Virus record (IMG/VR): IMGVR_UViG_3300013121_000002
Coordinates: 43,976-107,975 of that record
Direction: 5' to 3' (one strand)
From: a virus
Taxonomy: Duplodnaviria; Heunggongvirae; Uroviricota; Caudoviricetes
Length of the DNA stretch: 64,000 nucleotides
The position numbers were made by a program, and so were the translations under genes. The notes under the pieces are model-generated. The model worked only from the letters and a program-made list of their open reading frames with translations, searched no databases and was not told the DNA's origin. Below, piece after piece: positions 18,340-52,452 of this stretch. Within the stretch, counting starts at the first letter, position 1. Each line of letters starts with the position of its first letter.

Positions 18340-19692
18340 TCAGCCGCCGCGACGGCCCCTCAGACTATCAAGCTGATCCTTGGCCGACTGCGAAGCATCG
18401 CCGACAGCGTCATCAGCTACGCGACGCCGGGGCGGTGCATCATCATCGTCAGCAGCCCGACGACGAGGCGGGGCATCGTCAGCGTCATCAGCCGGACGGC
18501 GACGTGGGGCGTCGTCATCGTCAGCCGGACGCCGCCGCGGCGGGGCGTCATCGTCATCAGCCGGACGACGCCGCGGTGGAGCGTCATCATCGTCAACAGC
18601 CCGACGACGGGGCGGCGCGTCGTCATCGTCGTAGCCACGCGGGCGACGGCGGTCATCGTCGTCGTCAGCCGGACGACGCCGCGGCGGTGCGTCGTCATCA
18701 TCAGCCGGACGGCGGCGAGGCGGGGCATCATCCTCATCGGCCGGACGGCGGCGCGAAGAACGCTCATCGACCTCATCGTCAACCGGACGACGGCGAGGAG
18801 GTGCGTCATCCTCGTCAACCCGGCGACGCGAGCGTGCGGCGCGTTCGTCGATCTCATCGTCATCGCGGCGGCTACCGCGGCGGTCATCATCGTCGTCACG
18901 GCGGCGATTACCGCGGCGGTCATCATCGTCGTCATCCCGGCGCGAAGAAACGAGCGGACGACGGTCATCATAATCGTCATCGCCGCCACGGCGCTCGACC
19001 TTGCCGTACAGAACCGCCTCCAAATAGTCGGCGGGGTAGTAGTGCAGGATGCTCGGTAGCGGATGGGCCATGATGTATTCCATCCACTGATCGTACCGCT
19101 CAGGCTTCGTCGAGAGCGGCGACGGGTCACGGTCGAACTCGACTGCCGTGTATTTCGTTCGCAGCTTCGTGCCAGCGCGGTTCATGTTCAGGTCGTACCC
19201 CTTGTCAGGGTGATCGAACGGCAGCAATGCATTGCTGCGCTTATCGATGGCGCGGTCGTTGACCTCCTTGAACAGCGTGCGAGGCAGCGACCAGACCTGC
19301 GGACCATCGCGCTGCGCATCGCGGTCGATGATCCAAGCGAGCGCCCGATACTGGGGCTTCAGCTTCTTGCGCTCGTCGGCGTCGGTCGAGCGTAGGGAAG
19401 CATTGCAGATCGGGCACTCCTCGTTGCGCATCTGGAGACAGAGATACGTCGCCGCTTCCGGCCCGATGTCGTAGTGCAGGTTGACGCCGATCTCCCAGTT
19501 GTTGCCGTACTTTTCAACGTCATCCCACGTTCCCGGCAGCACACGCAGACGATTCTCACCTTCCTTCGGTTTCCAAATCAGGACGGCGGGATCGACGTAG
19601 CTGTCGAAATTCCCGCCGCGCGCTTCATTCACTCGACGACGAACGTCATCGACCGTGCGGTTTTCACCGCGATAGACAAAACCCTTCACCAT
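18340..19692 (-). CDS. Zn-binding N-domain protein (possible gp32-like ssDNA-binding protein) with a long C-terminal tail of DDDDAPPRRRPA tandem repeats
   Basis: The N-terminal ~250 aa are globular with CLQMRNEECPICNASL. The C-terminal ~200 aa are roughly 12 copies of a 12-aa acidic/basic repeat. Location within the replication module. Confidence 0.5.
   Translation of the reverse strand: MVKGFVYRGENRTVDDVRRRVNEARGGNFDSYVDPAVLIWKPKEGENRLRVLPGTWDDVEKYGNNWEIGVNLHYDIGPEAATYLCLQMRNEECPICNASLRSTDADERKKLKPQYRALAWIIDRDAQRDGPQVWSLPRTLFKEVNDRAIDKRSNALLPFDHPDKGYDLNMNRAGTKLRTKYTAVEFDRDPSPLSTKPERYDQWMEYIMAHPLPSILHYYPADYLEAVLYGKVERRGGDDDYDDRRPLVSSRRDDDDDDRRGNRRRDDDDDRRGSRRDDDEIDERAARSRRRVDEDDAPPRRRPVDDEVDERSSRRRPADEDDAPPRRRPADDDDAPPRRRPADDDDDRRRPRGYDDDDAPPRRRAVDDDDAPPRRRPADDDDAPPRRRPADDDDAPRRRPADDADDAPPRRRAADDDDAPPRRRVADDAVGDASQSAKDQLDSLRGRRGG
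18420..18900. repeat. Tandem 36-bp coding repeats (about 12 copies)
   Basis: Repeated gccggacgacgccgcggcggggcgtcatcgtcatca-like units. On the minus strand they encode ADDDDAPPRRRP. Confidence 0.7.
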
Positions 19693-30313: not shown

Positions 30314-30517
30314 CGCCTGCTCCCCTGATCCATGAAGGACGACAGTGGTAGCACAACGCCGAATGAAAAAAGAAGGCCCCCCGGATGCCCTCGCGGGGAG
30401 CCTTCACTTTTGCCCACCTATCACATACCCCAGCCGGTGGCCTCCGGGGCAGAGCGTGCCACACTAGTGAGTGGCACACCCTATGTGGTGATGACGCTAA
30501 CGAATGCAAGAGGGAGA

Positions 30518-30548
30518 CATAACGAAACGGGGAGGCTTTCGCCTCCCC
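30518..30548 (-). terminator. Terminator-like conserved hairpin module (type 1, copy 0)
   Basis: GGGGAGGC-GAAA-GCCUCCCC followed by GUUUCGUUAUGU on the minus strand. Lies in the leader of the DnaB gene. Confidence 0.45.
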
Positions 30549-30632
30549 GCTCGACCATGCCCCACCTTGGCTCACCGCACCGGACCCGGCCGCGCCACAC
30601 CTCGGCTTGCCTTGCCACACCTCGAAAATTGA

Positions 30633-31322
30633 TTAGGCTTTCGCGACCTTGAACGAGGTCACGCCGAACCGACCGTAAGTCGGACGGAAATCGGCGACGC
30701 CGACGAGACGACCGGCCTGTTCGATCACCTCGCGCAACGTAGAAGGCTCGATGTATTCCGGCAGAAGAACCATGATCTGGAACGTCGCCTTCCACCCGGA
30801 GCGCAGCGCCGGGCGAACACGAGTGACGCCGTTCCGCTGGATCATCACACGACGCCTGTCGAGGTAGTCCCAAGTCTTGAGCCCGGTCGGAGCGAGTTCA
30901 GTCAGCGAGACGACACCCGCCTTGAACAGGTCCATCGCCGACTTGCGCGGCGACCGCGGGTCTTGCCGGAACTTCGCGGCGGCGATAATCGCCTGCCGCA
31001 GATACTCGCCGGGAACGCTAATGAGCCCCCTGTCATTGCGGTACAGGTAGCTCTCCACATCGTCGGTTTTCTTCGCCTTGGAGTTCTTGGCGGCGACGCT
31101 CTTGGCCTCGACCGCCTCGTTGTTCCAGCGATGGAACAGGAGATCGCTGGTGCCGGTGATCTCGACCGTGGCGGTGTACGGAATCCCCGCCTCAATGGTA
31201 TTTGCCCCACCATTGGTGGGTTCGCTGACATGATCGACGCGCTTGCGCCGTGAACCACTTGCTTCCACGTTAAAACCTCCATTTGCCATCGCGATCACAC
31301 TCGGGATTGAGCACTGTCGCAT
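30633..31322 (-). CDS. Hypothetical protein
   Basis: 229-aa ORF. Possible start at MANGGFNVEASG. Confidence 0.45.
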   Translation of the reverse strand: MRQCSIPSVIAMANGGFNVEASGSRRKRVDHVSEPTNGGANTIEAGIPYTATVEITGTSDLLFHRWNNEAVEAKSVAAKNSKAKKTDDVESYLYRNDRGLISVPGEYLRQAIIAAAKFRQDPRSPRKSAMDLFKAGVVSLTELAPTGLKTWDYLDRRRVMIQRNGVTRVRPALRSGWKATFQIMVLLPEYIEPSTLREVIEQAGRLVGVADFRPTYGRFGVTSFKVAKA

Positions 31323-31332
31323 CTAGGCGAAT

Positions 31333-31364
31333 AATCAAATGGAGTGTTCGTTAGCGTTTGTCAA
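31333..31364 (-). promoter_or_regulatory. Promoter-like TTGACA-N17-CATTTG element directly downstream of the terminator
   Basis: Minus-strand reading: TTGACAaacgctaacgaacactcCATTTG. Confidence 0.3.
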
Positions 31365-31366
31365 CT

Positions 31367-31397
31367 ACAAACGAAACGGGGAGGCTTTCGCCTCCCC
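31367..31397 (-). terminator. Intrinsic terminator, type 1, copy 1
   Basis: GGGGAGGCGAAAGCCUCCCC + GUUUCGUUUGU on the minus strand. Confidence 0.5.
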
Positions 31398-31517
31398 GCT
31401 CGACCATACCCTGCCCGGCCGCGCCATACCTCACCGAACCGCGCCCCACCTTAGCCCTCCGCACCGTGCCCGACCGTGCCTTGCCATGCCAAACCTCACC
31501 CGACCTCACCATGCCTC

Positions 31518-31553
31518 TAATAAAAAGGGCGGCTGCCTTTCGACAACCGCCCA
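31518..31553 (-). terminator. Intrinsic terminator, type 2
   Basis: Minus strand: GGGCGGUUGUCGAAAGGCAGCCGCCC followed by UUUUUAUUA. Confidence 0.6.
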
Positions 31554-31646
31554 CCATGCCTTACCCGACCGAACCCTCACCTTCGCCCGGCCGTACCGGA
31601 CCCAACCTAGCCTCACCAGACGCAAATCGTCACAAGCCGGTGCCAA

Positions 31647-31678
31647 ACCAAATGGATGCTTCGTTAGCGTTTGTCAAC
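31647..31678 (-). promoter_or_regulatory. Promoter-like TTGACA-N17-CATTTG element
   Basis: Minus strand: TTGACAaacgctaacgaagcatcCATTTG. Confidence 0.3.
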
Positions 31679-31699
31679 CACAAACGAAACGACCTCACG

Positions 31700-31744
31700 T
31701 CCATTACAAAAAGAGCGAGGAGGCTTTCGCCAACTCGCTCTTTC
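31700..31744 (-). terminator. Intrinsic terminator, degenerate type 1 copy
   Basis: Minus strand: GAGCGAGUUGGCGAAAGCCUCCUCGCUC + UUUUU. Confidence 0.5.
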
Positions 31745-31784
31745 CGTTCAAAATGAGGTAACACTATGAGGTACCGCCTCACCG

Positions 31785-31817
31785 CTCAAATGGATGGTTC
31801 GTTAGCGGTTTGTCAAC
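31785..31817 (-). promoter_or_regulatory. Promoter-like TTGACA-N17-CATTTG element
   Basis: Minus strand: TTGACAaaccgctaacgaaccatcCATTTG. Confidence 0.3.
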
Positions 31818-31818
31818 C

Positions 31819-31849
31819 ACAAACGAAACGGGGAGGCTTTCGCCTCCCC
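31819..31849 (-). terminator. Intrinsic terminator, type 1, copy 3
   Basis: Same hairpin + GUUUCGUUUGU. Confidence 0.5.
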
Positions 31850-31995
31850 GCTCGACCATAGCTCACCGCGCCTGACCTAGCCTAGCCAGACCCCACCCGA
31901 CCACACCGTACCAAACCAAACCTGACCACACCCTACCGGACCCGACCGGACCATGCCGGACCTCACACTACCTAGCCCGACCTCACCCAGCCTAT

Positions 31996-32030
31996 AATAA
32001 AAAGGGCGGCTGCCTTTCGACAACCGCCCA
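31996..32030 (-). terminator. Intrinsic terminator, type 2, second copy
   Basis: GGGCGG...CCGCCC hairpin + UUUUUAUUAUAGG. Confidence 0.6.
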
Positions 32031-32103
32031 CCATGCCTTACCCGACCGAACCGGACCACACCACGCCTAAGCGTGCCGCTCCTGACCTTACCGGGGTGCA
32101 AAC

Positions 32104-32135
32104 CAAAATAAATACATCGTTAAGTGTTTGTCAAC
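32104..32135 (-). promoter_or_regulatory. Promoter-like TTGACA-N17-TTATTT element
   Basis: Minus strand: TTGACAaacacttaacgatgtatTTATTT. Confidence 0.3.
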
Positions 32136-32147
32136 AGCACAAACGAA

Positions 32148-32179
32148 ACGAGGAGGCTTTCGCCTCCCCGCTCGACCAT
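32148..32179 (-). terminator. Intrinsic terminator, type 1, copy 4 (variant)
   Basis: GGGGAGGCGAAAGCCUCCUC + GUUUCGUUUGUGCUG. Confidence 0.45.
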
Positions 32180-32273
32180 GCCCTGCCCGGCCGCGCCATA
32201 CCTCACCGAACCGCGCCCCACCTTGCCGTAGCCAACCTTACCGCAGCGTCCACTTAAACCAAAATCAAACTAC

Positions 32274-32831: not shown

Positions 32832-32877
32832 CTATTGATTTCCCTATACAGGTTACGCCATATGACGAACTGCTAAC

Positions 32878-32962
32878 CAAACGCCATAGGCATAGTGCCG
32901 TAGGTAGGTTAGCAACTTGCTAACCAAACGCCATAGGCATGGTGCCGTAGGCAGGTTAGCAA
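32878..32962. promoter_or_regulatory. Two tandem ~44-bp palindromic operator-like repeats in a divergent promoter region
   Basis: ttgctaaccaaacgccataggcat(a/g)gtgccgtagg(t/c)aggttagcaa twice. Each has a 9-bp inverted repeat TTGCTAACC/GGTTAGCAA. Confidence 0.55.
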
Positions 32963-32982: not shown

Positions 32983-33453
32983 GTGGCTACTGCAAGAAAG
33001 CCGAAGGCTGCGCCTCAAAACGCAACGCCGGAACCGAAGCCCACCGCCAAGCCGCATCGGCAGCAGGTGGACAAATCGCGGATCATTCCGCTCCCGACCA
33101 TCCTCGAACGCAAGATCAAGTTCGGGCCAACGCTCAACGATCATGTCGAGCGTGTTCACGTCGCTCTGTACGCCAAGAGCGACGAATACCGCAAGTTCCT
33201 GTCGGCCGTCTATGACGACGACGCGGTGGAAGGCTCCCTGCGCGCCGACAACCTCGAACTCGCCCGGCTCATCCGCGACTACGCTGCGGAGAACGGCATG
33301 ACCGAAGTCGTCAAAAAGCCGGACGGCGGACAGCGCACCAAGGAATCCATCGTGAAGGCGCTCAACGTGGTGCTTCGGCGCTACGGCATCGCGCGGGAAA
33401 TCCGGCGCAACACCCTCGGCGGCGAGTACGTCGGCACCGGCAACGGCGACTAA
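32983..33453 (+). CDS. Hypothetical basic protein
   Basis: 156-aa ORF with a Lys/Pro-rich N-terminus. A GGAG RBS sits at 32970. Confidence 0.5.
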   Translation: MATARKPKAAPQNATPEPKPTAKPHRQQVDKSRIIPLPTILERKIKFGPTLNDHVERVHVALYAKSDEYRKFLSAVYDDDAVEGSLRADNLELARLIRDYAAENGMTEVVKKPDGGQRTKESIVKALNVVLRRYGIAREIRRNTLGGEYVGTGNGD

Positions 33454-35084: not shown

Positions 35085-35275
35085 CTAGCCACACATCCCG
35101 TTCGAGCCGCGCTGGCCCCATGCGATGTCGGTGAGGTCGCCGACCGGCACCAACGGCACGAGGTCGGCGCACTCGACGGCAATCATTTCCGGCACGCCTA
35201 GCTCAAGATCGGGCTCCGGGGCAAAGTACCAATCGTCGTCAGCACCCCAATGGTTCCAGTGATCCAGATCGGTCA
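35085..35275 (-). CDS. Small acidic Trp-rich protein (start MTDLDHWNHW)
   Basis: RBS GGAGCTAACGAAATG. The track ORF 35085..35387 extends upstream, but the N-terminal part is unlikely. Confidence 0.4.
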
Positions 35276-35280
35276 TTTCG

Positions 35281-35520
35281 TTAGCTCCTTGAGTGCTGCC
35301 TGATCCATTCCTTGGCGGCCACCGGGTCAGCAACCACCGCGACAACTCGTTGGGGCGGAATCTTGGCACGGATGGCGATCCTACCATCAGGCTGCTTCTC
35401 CGTCAGGAACCAGCGGTGCTCCTTCGCCATCCGCTGCATTTCGTTATCTTCCCGCTGCCGGTGTTTCTGTTCCAGCGGCTGCATCTTCCGTGCTCGACGC
35501 TTGCTAATGATCTGCGACAA
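35281..35520 (-). CDS. Hypothetical basic protein
   Basis: 79-aa ORF, Arg/Gln-rich. Confidence 0.4.
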   Translation of the reverse strand: MSQIISKRRARKMQPLEQKHRQREDNEMQRMAKEHRWFLTEKQPDGRIAIRAKIPPQRVVAVVADPVAAKEWIRQHSRS

Positions 35521-36267
35521 CTCCCCACCTCAACTGCTGGTAGCAACCCTAGCGTGTGATAGCTAGGAACCTTTGGTTTTGCACGCCCTCGCGCCCCTCC
35601 GGGTCGCTCGTTCTCTGGCAGCATCACTCACTCGACGCCCTGCGGGCGCTCGTTCGCTGGATCAAGGGGTAGGATGAAGTAGAGCACACTGACGGCCCGT
35701 TAGGGGCCGTCAGGTGTTGCGTAGGGTATAGGAAGTTAGCGTCCCACGATTGGATTGTCGGACTGTTCCCGGTGCGAAATGAATGCTCTGTGGGAACACG
35801 AGGGCGGTTAGGCTGAATACCCCCTACCGATGCTGATCTTCTAGCGCCACCCCAAGCCTGCGAATCCAACCACAGGATCAGGGCTCTCGGGCTCATTTAA
35901 GCCGAGGTCATTTGGTGTGCTGCCATGCTCTTGGCGGTATTCCGGGAGTTCCCCACCCGCCTTGAAGCGGTGACGACCGGAGCGCAACAGGGCGCGAGCT
36001 ATGTTGCCGCGCCGGACTTGCAAGGTGGGGGTGCTTTGCCCTATTTTCAGGGCTCTACACCGCGCTCCTCGGCAAAGGACTTCGCGGTCTTTCGGCCCAC
36101 GGTTTCGCGACCGTGGGCCGAGTCATTTCTGGCACAGCCCGATCCCGGTTGGCAAGAAGGCTCCGCGCAGGCCGCCAGAAGGCCCGTAGGACGCCAGAGC
36201 GCGGATTGAGCCCTACAGCCCAGTGCTGCTACTCTCCCGGCCCTGTAGGAGGCCGTAGGGACCAACG
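35521..36267. promoter_or_regulatory. About 740-bp ORF-free, hairpin-rich divergent intergenic region (leader of the NusG-like operon, possible ncRNA)
   Basis: No credible ORF on either strand. Hairpins include GACGGCCC-GUUA-GGGCCGUC and CACGGU-UUCGCG-ACCGUG. Confidence 0.35.
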
Positions 36268-36795
36268 ATGATCGAGCGGCGGCGACCCAGCCGATGGATC
36301 GTGTGCAGCACGCAGCCGCAGCGTGAGCGTTGGGCTGCCGACAACGCCCAGCGCCAAGGCTACGACACCTACCTGCCCATGATCCGCACCGAGGTCGTCG
36401 AGCGCGGCGTCGCCTCGCTCCGGGTCCGGCCGCTGTTCCCGCGCTACCTGTTCGTCCACATCACCAATGAGCAATGGCGCTCGCTGACCGGCACGTTCGG
36501 CGTGGCGTCGATCATCATGGGCGACAACGGTCGCCCTGCCACGCTGCCCGAGATCGCCATCGACCAGCTAAGGGCGCGCGAGCGCGACGGATACGTCGTG
36601 CTGCCCCGCGCCGAGGAGATCGCCCTGACGCCCGGACAGGCCGTCCGGGTGCTCGCCGGGCCGTTCGAGGGTACGGTCGGCGTGTACGTCGGCATGGGGC
36701 CTGCGGAGCGCGAGCGCGTGCTGCTGGACCTGCTCGGCCGCAAAACGACCGTGCTCGTCAGCCCGGACAACATCGCAGGGGAGAATGACACATGA
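36268..36795 (+). CDS. NusG/RfaH-family transcription antiterminator-like protein (NGN + KOW)
   Basis: NGN-like N-domain: WIVCSTQPQRERWAADNAQRQGYDTYLPMI...PLFPRYLFV. KOW-like C-domain: LTPGQAVRVLAGPFEGTVGVYVGM. Confidence 0.55.
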   Translation: MIERRRPSRWIVCSTQPQRERWAADNAQRQGYDTYLPMIRTEVVERGVASLRVRPLFPRYLFVHITNEQWRSLTGTFGVASIIMGDNGRPATLPEIAIDQLRARERDGYVVLPRAEEIALTPGQAVRVLAGPFEGTVGVYVGMGPAERERVLLDLLGRKTTVLVSPDNIAGENDT

Positions 36796-37160
36796 CGCTG
36801 TTCGTCGCCGGGGATTTCAAATCCCACTCGGGATTGATCCTGCACGAGAAGATCGAATGCGACGCGCTGACCCCGGCCGACCTCGATTGCCTTGCGCAAA
36901 TCATTCACCGCCATGCGTGGCCGTGGTCCCGTGCAATCGGCATTCCGTTTGGTGGGGTGCCGCTGGCGACGGTCCTGAACCTACGCTACAAGCGGTCGGA
37001 CGATGCTCCGGTGCTCGTCGTCGATGACGTACTGACCACCGGGAAATCGCTGATCGAGGCCATGGGGCAATATGCAAATGCCACCGGGTTTGTTATCTTC
37101 GACCGCTCGGGCAAACCATTGCCGCCCGGCGTGAAGGCGATCTTCACCATGATCGCCTAA
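36792..37160 (+). CDS. Small type-I phosphoribosyltransferase (PRTase) domain protein
   Basis: PRPP-binding motif VLVVDDVLTTGKSL. Confidence 0.6.
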   Translation: MTLFVAGDFKSHSGLILHEKIECDALTPADLDCLAQIIHRHAWPWSRAIGIPFGGVPLATVLNLRYKRSDDAPVLVVDDVLTTGKSLIEAMGQYANATGFVIFDRSGKPLPPGVKAIFTMIA

Positions 37161-37181: not shown

Positions 37182-38000
37182 TTGAAGTTCGACAACTCCC
37201 TGTTCCTGACCCGCGAGGTCGAACGTGACCTCCTCGTGCGCGCCAAGGCAGGAGATCGGGCGGCGCGCGACCGGCTGGTTCTCGCCCATCGGCCGCAGGT
37301 GATTGGCGCGGCGCGCAAGTTTGCCCGCGTCTACCCCACCATCGACATCGACGATCTCATATCCGAGGGGAACATCGGGTTGATGGCGGCGATCCGGTCA
37401 TTCGACATGGAACAGACCGTGCGCTTCGCGACCTACGCCGTGTACCACATCGGCAACCGGGTCCGGGATTTCATCCTCCGCAACGCAGCGCACGGCGTCA
37501 GCTTCGCGGGCACCACGGCGACGCGGGCGCTGTTTTTCAAATCGCGGATGCTGCTGATGAATGAGTCGGCATCGGGTCGGCCGCTCGCTGAGCAATATCA
37601 GCGGGTCGCTAACAAGCTCGGCGTCACGGTGCGACAGCTAACCGACTTCCTGAACTTCGGCACGTCGTCGCTCGACGCCCCACCACCGGGTGGCACCGGG
37701 GAAGCTGCTCTTTCCTCGGTCGGTGAACTGCTCGTCGATGCAACGGCACCCGACCCGGAGGAGCACACTGACGAGAGCCAGCGGGCGAAGCTGTTGCACG
37801 ACGCTCTGAACCGGCTGGAGCCGCGCGACCGGCTGGTGCTGATCTCGCGCTTCATGAACAACGAGACGCTGGAAGGTGCCGCCGCCACCCTGAAGGTGAC
37901 GCGCGAACGCGTGCGCCAGATCGAGAGTCGGGCACTGCGGCGACTGAAGGATTTGCTGATTGATTTGCAGCCGGAACCGGAACGCACCGCGGCCGAATAA
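37182..38000 (+). CDS. Sigma-70 family RNA polymerase sigma factor
   Basis: Region 2: DDLISEGNIGLMAAIRSFD. Region 4 HTH: TLEGAAATLKVTRERVRQIESRALRRLK. Confidence 0.8.
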   Translation: MKFDNSLFLTREVERDLLVRAKAGDRAARDRLVLAHRPQVIGAARKFARVYPTIDIDDLISEGNIGLMAAIRSFDMEQTVRFATYAVYHIGNRVRDFILRNAAHGVSFAGTTATRALFFKSRMLLMNESASGRPLAEQYQRVANKLGVTVRQLTDFLNFGTSSLDAPPPGGTGEAALSSVGELLVDATAPDPEEHTDESQRAKLLHDALNRLEPRDRLVLISRFMNNETLEGAAATLKVTRERVRQIESRALRRLKDLLIDLQPEPERTAAE

Positions 38001-43739: not shown

Positions 43740-44330
43740 AATAAGCTCAGCCTTGTCGTGAATTTGAGTTGCGAACGTGGGGGTTCAAATCCTCCCTCCC
43801 CGACCATGACGGGGAGTGCCGGAACGGTAGACGGGAGTCCCTTCGGGACTTGTTCGCTTCAAACTAAATCTATTCACGCAAGTTGAGCATTGCCGCGCCG
43901 ATCCTATCGAGGTGCGTCGGGTTCCAATTGAGAGGCGCTGGTTCAAATCCAGCCGCGCCCGCCATGTGGGGCGCGTGGTCCAGCGGAAGGGCGCTCAACA
44001 TGAAACTGATCCGACGTATTAAACGCCGAGGGTTGGGAGAAGTCGCGGTACAAGCCCCGGCAGTCTAGGCTAGTGCTGCCGGGGCACCTATCCCAGAGGT
44101 TCCAGCTTGGGGAACGGATCAGCGGCCAAGAGGTTCAAAGGCCACGGACCTGCGGGTAGCTCGACGGAGCAAAACCTGCCAACGCTGATCCAGCAATTCG
44201 TGCTCGGAGAATAGATCACCGGGGACCGAGAGGGGGTCCGCCACCTCCTGTAGAACAGCCCGGTGCAGCTTACGCCTGTCTGCACCGAGCCAAAGCCTAC
44301 CTCCCGGTGATCCCTATCAAGGGATAATCA
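43740..44330 (+). ncRNA. ORF-free region with tRNA-like fragments: two T-arm + 3' acceptor + CCA elements, each immediately followed by its complementary 5' acceptor strand (permuted tRNA-like/Y-RNA-like modules), plus a strong 10-bp hairpin
   Basis: GGGGGUUCAAAUCCUCC-CUCCCCG-A-CCA-uga-CGGGGAG at ~43768-43806. GCUGGUUCAAAUCCAGC-CGCGCCC-G-CCA-ugu-GGGCGCG at ~43925-43967. D-loop-like AACGGUAGA/AGCGG follows each. Hairpin GCCCCGGCAG/CUGCCGGGGC at ~44043-44073. Confidence 0.35.
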
Positions 44331-44556: not shown

Positions 44557-44834
44557 CCGTTCGGCTCGGGATCGAACGTCTCGATGGTGAAGGCGGTGAG
44601 CGGCCGGTTCGGTTTCCCATCAGGGCGGCGCGGCCGAACGGTACTGGTCTGCTGCCAGCACGCCATCGCCGACGCCACATCCGGGAAGCGCATCGCCTCG
44701 GACAGATTGTCGGTGGCGTGAACGTCGCCGAGCCCGCCGTGGCCGTCCGGGTCGTAGCTCTTGAGGTAGAGCCCGTCGAACTCCGGCATCCGGTGGCCGC
44801 TGGCAAGCTCGATCAGTTTGATTACGCGGGTCAT
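44553..44834 (-). CDS. Hypothetical protein (start MTRVIKLIELASGH)
   Basis: RBS GGAAACGAAAACAAAATG. ATGA overlap with the upstream gene. The track ORF 44553..44942 has a doubtful Arg-rich N-terminal extension. Confidence 0.4.
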   Translation of the reverse strand: MTRVIKLIELASGHRMPEFDGLYLKSYDPDGHGGLGDVHATDNLSEAMRFPDVASAMACWQQTSTVRPRRPDGKPNRPLTAFTIETFDPEPNG

Positions 44835-45202
44835 TTTGTTTTCGTTTCCTTTCCCATGAGGATCGCCTGCGCCCGCTCGATGTCGGCGGCCGTCAGGCCG
44901 GGCGGCGGGGTGCCGGTGAGGTGGAACCGCAGGTCGCGCCACATCTTGGCGACGGCGGTTTCCTCGGCAAGGGCTTCACGCGAGAGGTAGTAGCGGATTG
45001 GCGGCGTGAAGTCGTTCACCGGCCGGGGCCGTAAAGTTTCGATGTCCACACCGCCGTAGACGCGCCTATTCTCGACCAGCGCAACCTCTGCCCAACGCCG
45101 ACCGATCTTGGTGACGACCACATCCACAGGAAGCCGGGCAGCGCCGTAATGATTGTTGATGGCGACGAGGGTCTGCCCGATGTGTGTGATTACCTTGGTC
45201 AT
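44831..45202 (-). CDS. Hypothetical protein
   Basis: 123-aa ORF. RBS GGAGTAAACGAAAATG. Confidence 0.45.
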   Translation of the reverse strand: MTKVITHIGQTLVAINNHYGAARLPVDVVVTKIGRRWAEVALVENRRVYGGVDIETLRPRPVNDFTPPIRYYLSREALAEETAVAKMWRDLRFHLTGTPPPGLTAADIERAQAILMGKETKTK

Positions 45203-45699: not shown

Positions 45700-45784
45700 T
45701 TGGTTTCCCTCCTACAGGAACCGCGTTGCGATGCAAATGAAATGGGGAGCCCGGCTCCCCATTTCAAGTCCTAATCGTTACGTT

Positions 45785-52292: not shown

Positions 52293-52452
52293 CCCCCCTC
52301 CTACACTAGGGGTCAGATCGGTAAGCGCCGGGGTAGTAGGGGCAACCCTCCCCCGGCGCACTCATTTTCGTTAGCGTTCCACCTTGCAAACGAAATCAAA
52401 CGACATTATCTCATGGTCATCGAAACACGGTTCCTGTAGGAGGGAAACGACC

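Follow-up and report, generated by a model that had tools for sequence, protein, structure and literature searches.

We analysed a 64,000-nucleotide stretch of DNA (hereafter the window) that covers positions 43,976 to 107,975 of the IMG/VR record IMGVR_UViG_3300013121_000002, a 107,975-bp metagenome contig of a tailed phage (Caudoviricetes), and within it a gap of about 740 bp at positions 35521–36267 that is free of open reading frames (ORFs). The gap sits between a leftward ORF of 79 amino acids (aa) and a rightward operon headed by a nusG-like gene, and is thus a divergent intergenic region. The most likely explanation is an ordinary control region that serves both directions, as opposed to one large RNA. 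On the basis of its sequence features, we tentatively read the right third as the promoter and attenuator-type leader of an operon that encodes a NusG paralog, a phosphoribosyltransferase (PRTase)-like protein and a sigma factor, a reading that we prefer while holding it as possible rather than probable.

The initial annotation had seen no credible ORF in the region on either strand, and this was borne out by codon usage, frame composition, start signals and homology searches. The codon-usage log-likelihood is below zero for every ORF inside the region (−1 to −32, compared with +7 to +62 for the flanking genes), frame-specific GC is flat across 35720–36260, and no ORF of at least 15 aa combines a Shine-Dalgarno (SD) sequence and a start codon with a positive codon score. 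The ten longest stop-to-stop frames of the region have no matches in Pfam or PHROGs. The longest of them (102 aa), when compared with 1.84 billion representative proteins, matched only two repetitive proteins of more than 2000 aa and no real homolog. A concatenated six-frame query of a 5.8-billion database also returned nothing, a weak negative because this search missed even the contig's own 67-aa protein, which was found later. The region had further been described as an exception to otherwise tight gene packing. This holds in part only: the gap is the second largest in a crude gene map of the window after 31299–32273, and about 25 gaps in that map exceed 200 bp.

The right third of the region contains a match to a recurrent class of promoter-like sites (Table 1), for which the general form is TTGaCA-N15-yCyATnT, often with the spacer AACGCTAACGAA and with a −35 element that reads TTGACA or TTGCAA. 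A −35/−10 matrix was trained on nine recurrent intergenic sites from which the site at 36018 was left out; when every position of the window was scored on both strands, this site nevertheless came 8th, and each of the 12 best-ranked positions is intergenic. The pattern TTGMNA-N15/16-YCYATNT gives seven matches against 0.12 expected, all of them intergenic and including 36018–36046, in a comparison that is partly circular because the pattern was chosen after the sites were seen. The −35 hexamer of the 36018 site lies inside a palindrome (CTTGCAAG), reading TTGCAA on both strands. Judged by sequence, the recurrent class resembles sigma-32-type promoters, for which the −10 consensus in E. coli is CCCCATNT, accompanied by a conserved −35 (PMC6687850). 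The phage encodes an RpoH-like sigma factor as the third gene of the nusG operon, and so the recurrent class may be its regulon, with this sigma factor reading the promoters. Other members of the class stand 13–45 nt from the SD of the gene that follows; at the nusG-like gene the distance is about 198 nt, which makes its predicted leader exceptional.

The leader begins with a predicted 5′ stem-loop, followed by a hairpin with the anatomy of an intrinsic terminator, which we call H2 (stem 36091–36122). On the plus strand it consists of a GC-rich stem-loop and then a U-rich tract (also written UCAUUUCU and UCAUUUCUGG); on the minus strand the tail is not T-rich. The core at 36092–36121 has 13 perfect pairs and a folding energy of −28.9 kcal/mol. 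H2 heads the list of terminator-like hairpins on either strand of the 19 kb between 30 and 49 kb, and it is similar to other intergenic terminators of the phage, such as that at 52325–52359 with the tail ACTCATTTTCGT. The stem-loop and H2 together (36054–36133, 80 nt) fold at −41 kcal/mol, with a z-score of −4.7. About 145 nt separate H2 from the ribosome-binding site (RBS) and the ATG at 36268, for a predicted leader of some 213 nt. The SD of the nusG-like gene (GTAGGAGG, 36245–36252) is placed 15 nt before this ATG, compared with 5–12 nt at other genes, and an in-frame stop at 36256 precedes the ATG. This SD coincides with one copy of an extended RBS motif, (C)CTGTAGGAGGG, the core of which (CTCCTACA) is intergenic in 12 of 13 copies; the motif is often found within a near-identical 5′ untranslated region, cggttcctGTAGGAGGgaaacgaaATG. 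A structured leader linked to a NusG paralog had been proposed for the whole stretch of 740 nt. The right-hand 250 nt or so, with the promoter-like site, H2 and the leader of predicted length, fit such a description, and the whole does not.

Two hairpins quoted in the initial annotation are both present and are much more stable than shuffled sequences. These are H2 (z −4.8) and a second hairpin or palindrome further to the left, H1 (z −6.5), with a perfect 10-bp core at 35689–35713; H1 is free of G-U pairs, and neither strand has a U-tract. For 120-nt windows, the mean dinucleotide-shuffle z-score of the region is −1.28 on the plus strand and −1.40 on the minus strand, against −0.20 and −0.34 for 147 control windows (Mann-Whitney p = 0.008 and 0.039, respectively). 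This excess of structure arises only from 35601–35720 and 35961–36130, the rest of the region resembling random sequence; folded as a whole, the region has a z-score of about −3.3 on either strand. An apparent bias of structure towards the plus strand, obtained from GC-regressed folding, was an artefact of G content that disappeared with dinucleotide-shuffle z-scores. To the left of H1 are two 17-nt direct repeats that occur within the window at this place only and are possible protein-binding sites. Further repeats, of GCMAGAAGGC at 36152 and 36174, are no more than expected by chance.

On profile evidence, the gene downstream of the leader is a specialised NusG paralog. The earlier description of it as NusG/RfaH-like agrees with the scores from family models, in which RfaH (TIGR01955, 90.6 bits) and UpxY (NF033644, 71.5 bits) stand above housekeeping NusG (34.8 bits), with LoaP (NF033641) at 17.8 bits, although all of these are below the respective cut-offs of 144.5, 100, 135.7 and 125 bits. 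The best match among solved structures is E. coli RfaH (E = 7e-10). An AlphaFold2 model (61 sequences, predicted local distance difference test score 90) has a C-terminal beta-barrel KOW domain with strands at residues 125–128, 137–143, 149–155 and 158–164; this is a weak test for an alpha-hairpin of the RfaH type, predictions for fold-switching domains being unreliable. The nearest cellular homologs come from Bradyrhizobium and Xanthobacteraceae and the host is therefore presumably alphaproteobacterial. The nusG-like gene is the first of its operon: the genes that start at 36792 and 37182 overlap or abut the gene before them, and the gene upstream is divergent. The PRTase-like protein has only a match to the phosphoribosyl pyrophosphate loop (Pfam E = 2e-4; about 1e-5 with pyrE models), and its position between the NusG paralog and the sigma factor is kept in a related contig, L001, where it is 70% identical in amino acid sequence.

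In the attenuator reading, RNA polymerase would start at about 36054 from the recurrent-class promoter (TTGCAA-N16-CCTATTT), transcribe the 5′ stem-loop and then, some 40–80 nt from the start, reach the strong intrinsic terminator H2. Only polymerases that read through would reach the RBS and the nusG-like gene, such that H2 would act as an attenuator gating both an antiterminator-like protein and the phage sigma factor. The NusG paralog may itself aid read-through, in a positive feedback as in UpxY-type operons (PMC7819879). The left 500 nt or so would serve the leftward two-gene unit, or bind regulators via the H1 palindrome and the direct repeats, or both. In its most specific form, the proposal would have the paralog use the leader as a cis-acting site that lets RNA polymerase pass the promoter-proximal terminator, in response to a signal other than the operon polarity suppressor (ops) element, and thereby switch on both itself and the RpoH-like sigma factor that reads TTGaCA-N15-yCyATnT promoters; this self-reinforcing circuit we consider decidedly unlikely.

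In the UpxY operons of Bacteroides fragilis, the NusG paralog is encoded first in the operon, behind a long 5′ leader within which it prevents premature termination. The window likewise has its paralog first in the operon, a predicted untranslated leader of more than 200 nt with a putative termination signal, and the UpxY model score given above. It differs in being a phage and not a capsule locus, in that its operon runs into PRTase-like and sigma genes, in scoring below the UpxY cut-off, and in that an action of the paralog on the leader is hypothetical. The RfaH/ops system of Enterobacteria is the closest in terms of both family model and solved structure. RfaH targets sit in the leaders of long operons, and rfaH itself is a stand-alone gene. 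Unlike RfaH, the paralog falls short of the equivalog cut-off and is predicted (unreliably, for a possible fold switch) to have a C-terminal beta-barrel where RfaH has an autoinhibited alpha-hairpin, and the ops element is not enriched over chance, its closest match (GGCGGTATTCCG at 35933, two mismatches) being upstream of the predicted start.

The arrangement is also similar to lambda PR′, with 6S RNA, tR′ and the Q protein, in that a terminator follows closely behind the promoter and the downstream operon would need a termination-resistant polymerase. In the Bartonella BaGTA, which has the Q-like protein BrrG, a long attenuating leader is found downstream of the promoter (10.1101/2024.11.20.624540). 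Unlike in the lambda Q and BrrG systems, no Q-like gene was identified in the window, and the candidate antiterminator is the NusG paralog encoded beyond the terminator. Finally, LoaP, from antibiotic clusters of Firmicutes, is a NusG paralog tied to a structured, terminator-containing 5′ leader, but its gene context is different and its family model is the poorest match to the window protein, far below cut-off.

Comparative searches returned no homolog of the region itself. The only close relative is L001, a contig that starts at or within the nusG gene; its NusG paralog is 80% identical at the protein level, and homology to the window begins only at 36361, inside the nusG gene. Comparison of L001:1–100 with window positions 36268–36360 shows the first 30 or so nusG codons replaced by unrelated sequence, such that the conserved W-x-V N-terminal strand is missing; this could reflect recombination at that point, truncation of the gene or a chimeric assembly. 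NusG protein scans of viral, metagenome and genome collections otherwise found no close relative. Searches with the region gave no match among phages and plasmids (blastn), and noise only against at least 87 fetched loci (blastn, nhmmer and tblastx). The other relatives of the paralog are at most 50% identical and have no DNA similarity to the region: phage-contig relatives at 45–50% identity have an upstream gap of only 50–66 nt, bacterial relatives lie in polysaccharide loci behind a helix-turn-helix (HTH) gene, and of 80 IMG/VR loci with relatives at 33–50%, all without DNA similarity to the region, none has a PRTase-like or a sigma neighbour. In total, IMG/VR holds 182 relatives of the NusG paralog, compared with none in 50,697 deposited phage records. 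Thus, as far as these collections go, NusG paralogs of this phage group appear only in metagenomic viral contigs, and no relative from a cultured phage was found among the deposited records. We are not aware of experimental work on any NusG paralog carried by a phage.

Long non-coding stretches upstream of phage nusG paralogs nonetheless recur, because a sister clade of IMG/VR phages (L091, L094, L100 and L106) is organised in the same way, with a small divergent gene that points leftward, 600–700 nt of non-coding DNA and a rightward nusG paralog, the product of which is 36–43% identical to the window paralog. The spacer is conserved but non-coding, with indels that are not multiples of three and mismatches spread evenly over codon phases, whereas the nusG control has a strong third-position bias. 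It contains a structured element (model R1; Table 1) with a core of about 250 nt in which 95.5% of cells are paired and some G-U pairs are invariant. Compensatory changes are seen in 20 of the 80 pairs of the core, compared with 7.2 in shuffles and at most 4 in slid registers, and none of 500 shuffles reaches 20. The element has no match in Rfam, and no terminator-like hairpins were found in the sister clade. On this comparative evidence, we regard it as a candidate for a new RNA associated with phage NusG paralogs, either a leader or a cis-regulatory element. It shares gene layout with the window but neither sequence nor covariance-model similarity: the R1 model has no match in 35521–36267, its only match in the window being at 18602–18719 (E = 0.77), and the terminator-like hairpin is found in the window alone.

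Several observations weigh against the attenuator reading. It leaves about 500 nt, including H1, without a role, and no convincing leftward promoter was found in the region (best matrix ranks 89 and 344). The promoter call is affected by the circularity mentioned above; in addition, one of the seven pattern matches (45740–45767) is itself a palindromic hairpin, and a weak terminator-like hairpin at 36020–36039 overlaps the spacer and −10 of the promoter. H2 has an interrupted U-tract, folding brings out no clear alternative antiterminator structure (36054–36110 alone has a z-score of −0.7), and a motif shared by the nusG leader and the phage's further promoter-terminator leaders was looked for and not found. 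A recruitment element of the ops type does not rise above chance: allowing two mismatches, the E. coli-type ops GGCGGTAGnnTG has 83 matches in the window against 71 expected, and those in the region, at 35665 and 35933 with two mismatches each, are both upstream of the predicted start, leaving none in 36054–36267. Lastly, a terminator-like hairpin within 350 nt upstream of the paralog is present in 0 of 70 distinct other phage nusG-paralog loci, which rules out such a terminator as a family-wide trait.

In a rival reading, the 36018 promoter and H2 would bound a stand-alone gene of about 75–80 nt for a trans-acting small RNA (sRNA), and the nusG operon would have a promoter of its own in 36133–36267. 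A promoter and a terminator some 40 nt apart, enclosing a stable two-hairpin fold, are typical of sRNA genes. Moreover, the phage seems to use small RNAs, given its several promoter / 70–115 nt / terminator units at 31.3–32.2 kb, a Y-RNA-like match and a ProQ-like protein (see below). However, 36133–36267 contains no recurrent-class promoter, only a weak candidate picked by eye (TTGAGC-N18-TACTCT at 36205) that is unranked in the matrix scan, and Rfam has no match. We think an sRNA gene unlikely though credible. We assign a similarly low probability to the idea that the region is mostly functionless spacer at a mosaic junction, carrying minimal flanking signals (a promoter and a leftover terminator) among hairpins and repeats that are not regulatory. 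In the collections searched there is no homolog of the region, about two-thirds of which is no more structured than random sequence, and the loss of L001 homology just inside nusG points to recombination nearby; relatives at 45–50% identity also manage with the short upstream gaps noted above. Set against this, 750 bp of inert DNA are rarely kept in phage genomes, and two perfect GC-rich hairpins, together with a top-ranking promoter match directed at nusG and a terminator between the two, are an unlikely combination to arise by chance.

We regard as quite improbable that the region is chiefly an operator, in which the 25-bp palindrome of H1 and the 17-nt repeats would bind a phage or host regulator of divergent promoters, possibly in a switch of the lysis/lysogeny type as the initial annotation had suggested. 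The perfect 10+10 inverted repeat of H1 (no G-U pairs or U-tracts), the spacing of the direct repeats by about four helical turns and their uniqueness to this site, and the −35 hexamer that reads identically on both strands would all suit protein binding. On the other hand, tests of neighbouring genes revealed no repressor, integrase or HTH gene, which leaves the lysis/lysogeny switch unsupported; the PolA-type replication module and the phage's own sigma factor suggest a lytic lifestyle, and 10-bp GC-rich arms fit RNA hairpins better than operators. A single large structured RNA or riboswitch-type leader spanning all of the 740 nt or so, also raised at the outset, is very improbable. The whole-region folding score and the covarying RNA of the sister clade speak for it, but the excess structure, which is strand-symmetric, comes from two short zones only, there is no promoter at the left end, and the R1 model finds nothing in the region. 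Nor did a scan with Rfam give support for a riboswitch or known non-coding RNA, there being no match at the gathering score and, in a permissive scan, only hits of E = 1.5 or above (mir-1597, ilvB-OMG and WT1-AS). Least credible of all is a hidden protein-coding gene with a non-canonical start or odd codon usage: open frames of up to 102 codons exist, but codon scores, frame GC, the lack of an SD-start combination and the Pfam, PHROG and homolog searches all count against one.

Table 1. Coordinates of the features discussed in the text. Positions are those of the window unless a locus is named.
Feature	Position	Strand	Description
ORF-free divergent intergenic region	35521–36267		783 bp with ATG 35484 as start of the leftward gene
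63-aa gene after the leftward 79-aa gene	35085–35276	−	junction GCTAACGAAATG
Leftward 79-aa orphan gene	35281–35520	−	TTG start 35520, SD GAGGTGGGGAG
Two 17-nt direct repeats	35602–35660	+	GGTCGCTCGTTCTCTGG and GGGCGCTCGTTCGCTGG; 42 nt apart, small GC hairpin before each
Hairpin/palindrome H1	35683–35718		core CTGACGGCCC-GTTAG-GGGCCGTCAG, −28.8 kcal/mol, z −6.5
Promoter-like site	36018–36047	+	TTGCAA-N16-CCTATTT; −10 hexamer TATTTT at 36042–36047; predicted start about 36054
5′ stem-loop of leader (predicted)	36059–36088	+	from folding
Intrinsic-terminator-like hairpin H2 and tail	36091–36132	+	14 pairs, 9 of them G-C; loop TTCG; tail TCATTTCTGG
Distal leader	36133–36267	+	135 nt, z about 0, no more structured than shuffles
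RfaH/UpxY-like NusG paralog	36268–36795	+	175 aa; Pfam NusG 2e-15
PRTase-like gene	36792–37160	+	122 aa; overlaps nusG stop
RpoH-like sigma-70-family factor	37182–38000	+	138 bits to rpoH models
Sites of the recurrent promoter class	31364 (−), 31677 (−), 31816 (−), 32134 (−), 45767 (−), 50258 (+), 51431 (+), 52384 (+), 57555 (+), 61440 (+), 63062 (+), 36018 (+)		intergenic
Copies of the extended RBS motif	36245, 45715 (−), 48386 (−), 48627, 49153, 49604, 50299, 51471, 52436, 54225, 61485, 62542
Conserved structured element of the sister clade (model R1)	L091:621–872, L094:697–945, L100:644–894, L106:709–950	nusG-sense	about 330–580 nt upstream of the paralog

The window as a whole encodes a Mu-type portal, a family-A DNA polymerase, a DnaB-like helicase, a primase, an SNF2 protein, SbcCD and two tRNAs. 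The leftward neighbour of the region was called by the Joint Genome Institute (P0121) as a 67-aa form starting at ATG 35484, and a protein database search with the 79-aa form returned only itself. A replication origin was considered for the region; GC skew was uninformative, and DnaA and CtrA boxes were looked at by eye only.

Other elements of the window were noted as well. Its largest ORF-free gap (31299–32273, 975 bp) and a short stretch at 30500–30560 contain, on the minus strand, arrays of a 5-nt periodic repeat, (GGTNN)n, with a period-5 power of up to 6.9 (for the window, median 0.16 and 99.5th percentile 2.26); this periodicity is not present in 35521–36267. The arrays lie within repeated cassettes made up of a terminator (GAGCGGGGAGGCGAAAGCCTCCCCGTTT), a promoter (TTGACAAACGCTAACGAA..TCCATTTG), 70–115 nt and a second terminator (GGGCGGTTGTCGAAAGGCAGCCGCCC+TTTTTATTA). 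These look like tandem small-RNA genes with GGU-pentamer repeats, and the arrays are perhaps a protein sponge, the ligand of a ring-shaped RNA-binding protein or G2N3 quadruplex arrays. In a 705-bp gap, positions 43914–44020 of the plus strand match the Rfam family YrlA (Y RNA-like) with 30.9 bits (E = 1.3e-4), short of the gathering threshold of 69. This match has a tRNA-like T-arm and acceptor end (GCTGGTTCAAATCCAGCCGCGCCCGCCA); neither ARAGORN nor the Rfam scan at gathering level picked it up. The window proteins that were tested included no Ro60/TROVE protein. Such a protein is encoded in another phage contig, at L004:1896–3479 (and also in L005), about 1.2 kb upstream of a nusG paralog that is 50% identical to that of the window; the 1.9 kb ahead of the Ro60/TROVE gene in L004 have no called genes and may hold Y-RNA-like genes.

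A 123-aa protein encoded at 44831–45202 on the minus strand has a 'Phage ProQ C-terminal-like' domain (E = 3.5e-12) and may be an RNA chaperone. Two tandem 47-bp units (32871–32962, plus strand), which are 95% identical and each form a hairpin (TGCTAACC...GGTTAGCA), lie shortly before the rightward gene at 32983. At 45738–45766, a perfect 14-nt inverted repeat (TGAAATGGGGAGCC-G-GGCTCCCCATTTCA) has arms that also read as a −35 (TTGAAA) and a −10 (CCCCATTT), and could combine terminator and promoter in one element.

As it stands, 35521–36267 is plausibly an ordinary regulatory region of a known general kind in orphan phage sequence. If the attenuator reading is right, the phage would have its own counterpart of a design found in Bacteroides capsule loci, where a NusG paralog is encoded downstream of its own leader with a terminator inside; coupled to a phage sigma factor, the design would amount to a compact switch for timing. 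In vitro tests of a non-ops recruitment signal would then have a defined promoter, terminator and set of proteins to work with. Beyond this phage, the covarying RNA of the sister clade suggests a more general partnership between leader RNAs and phage NusG paralogs.

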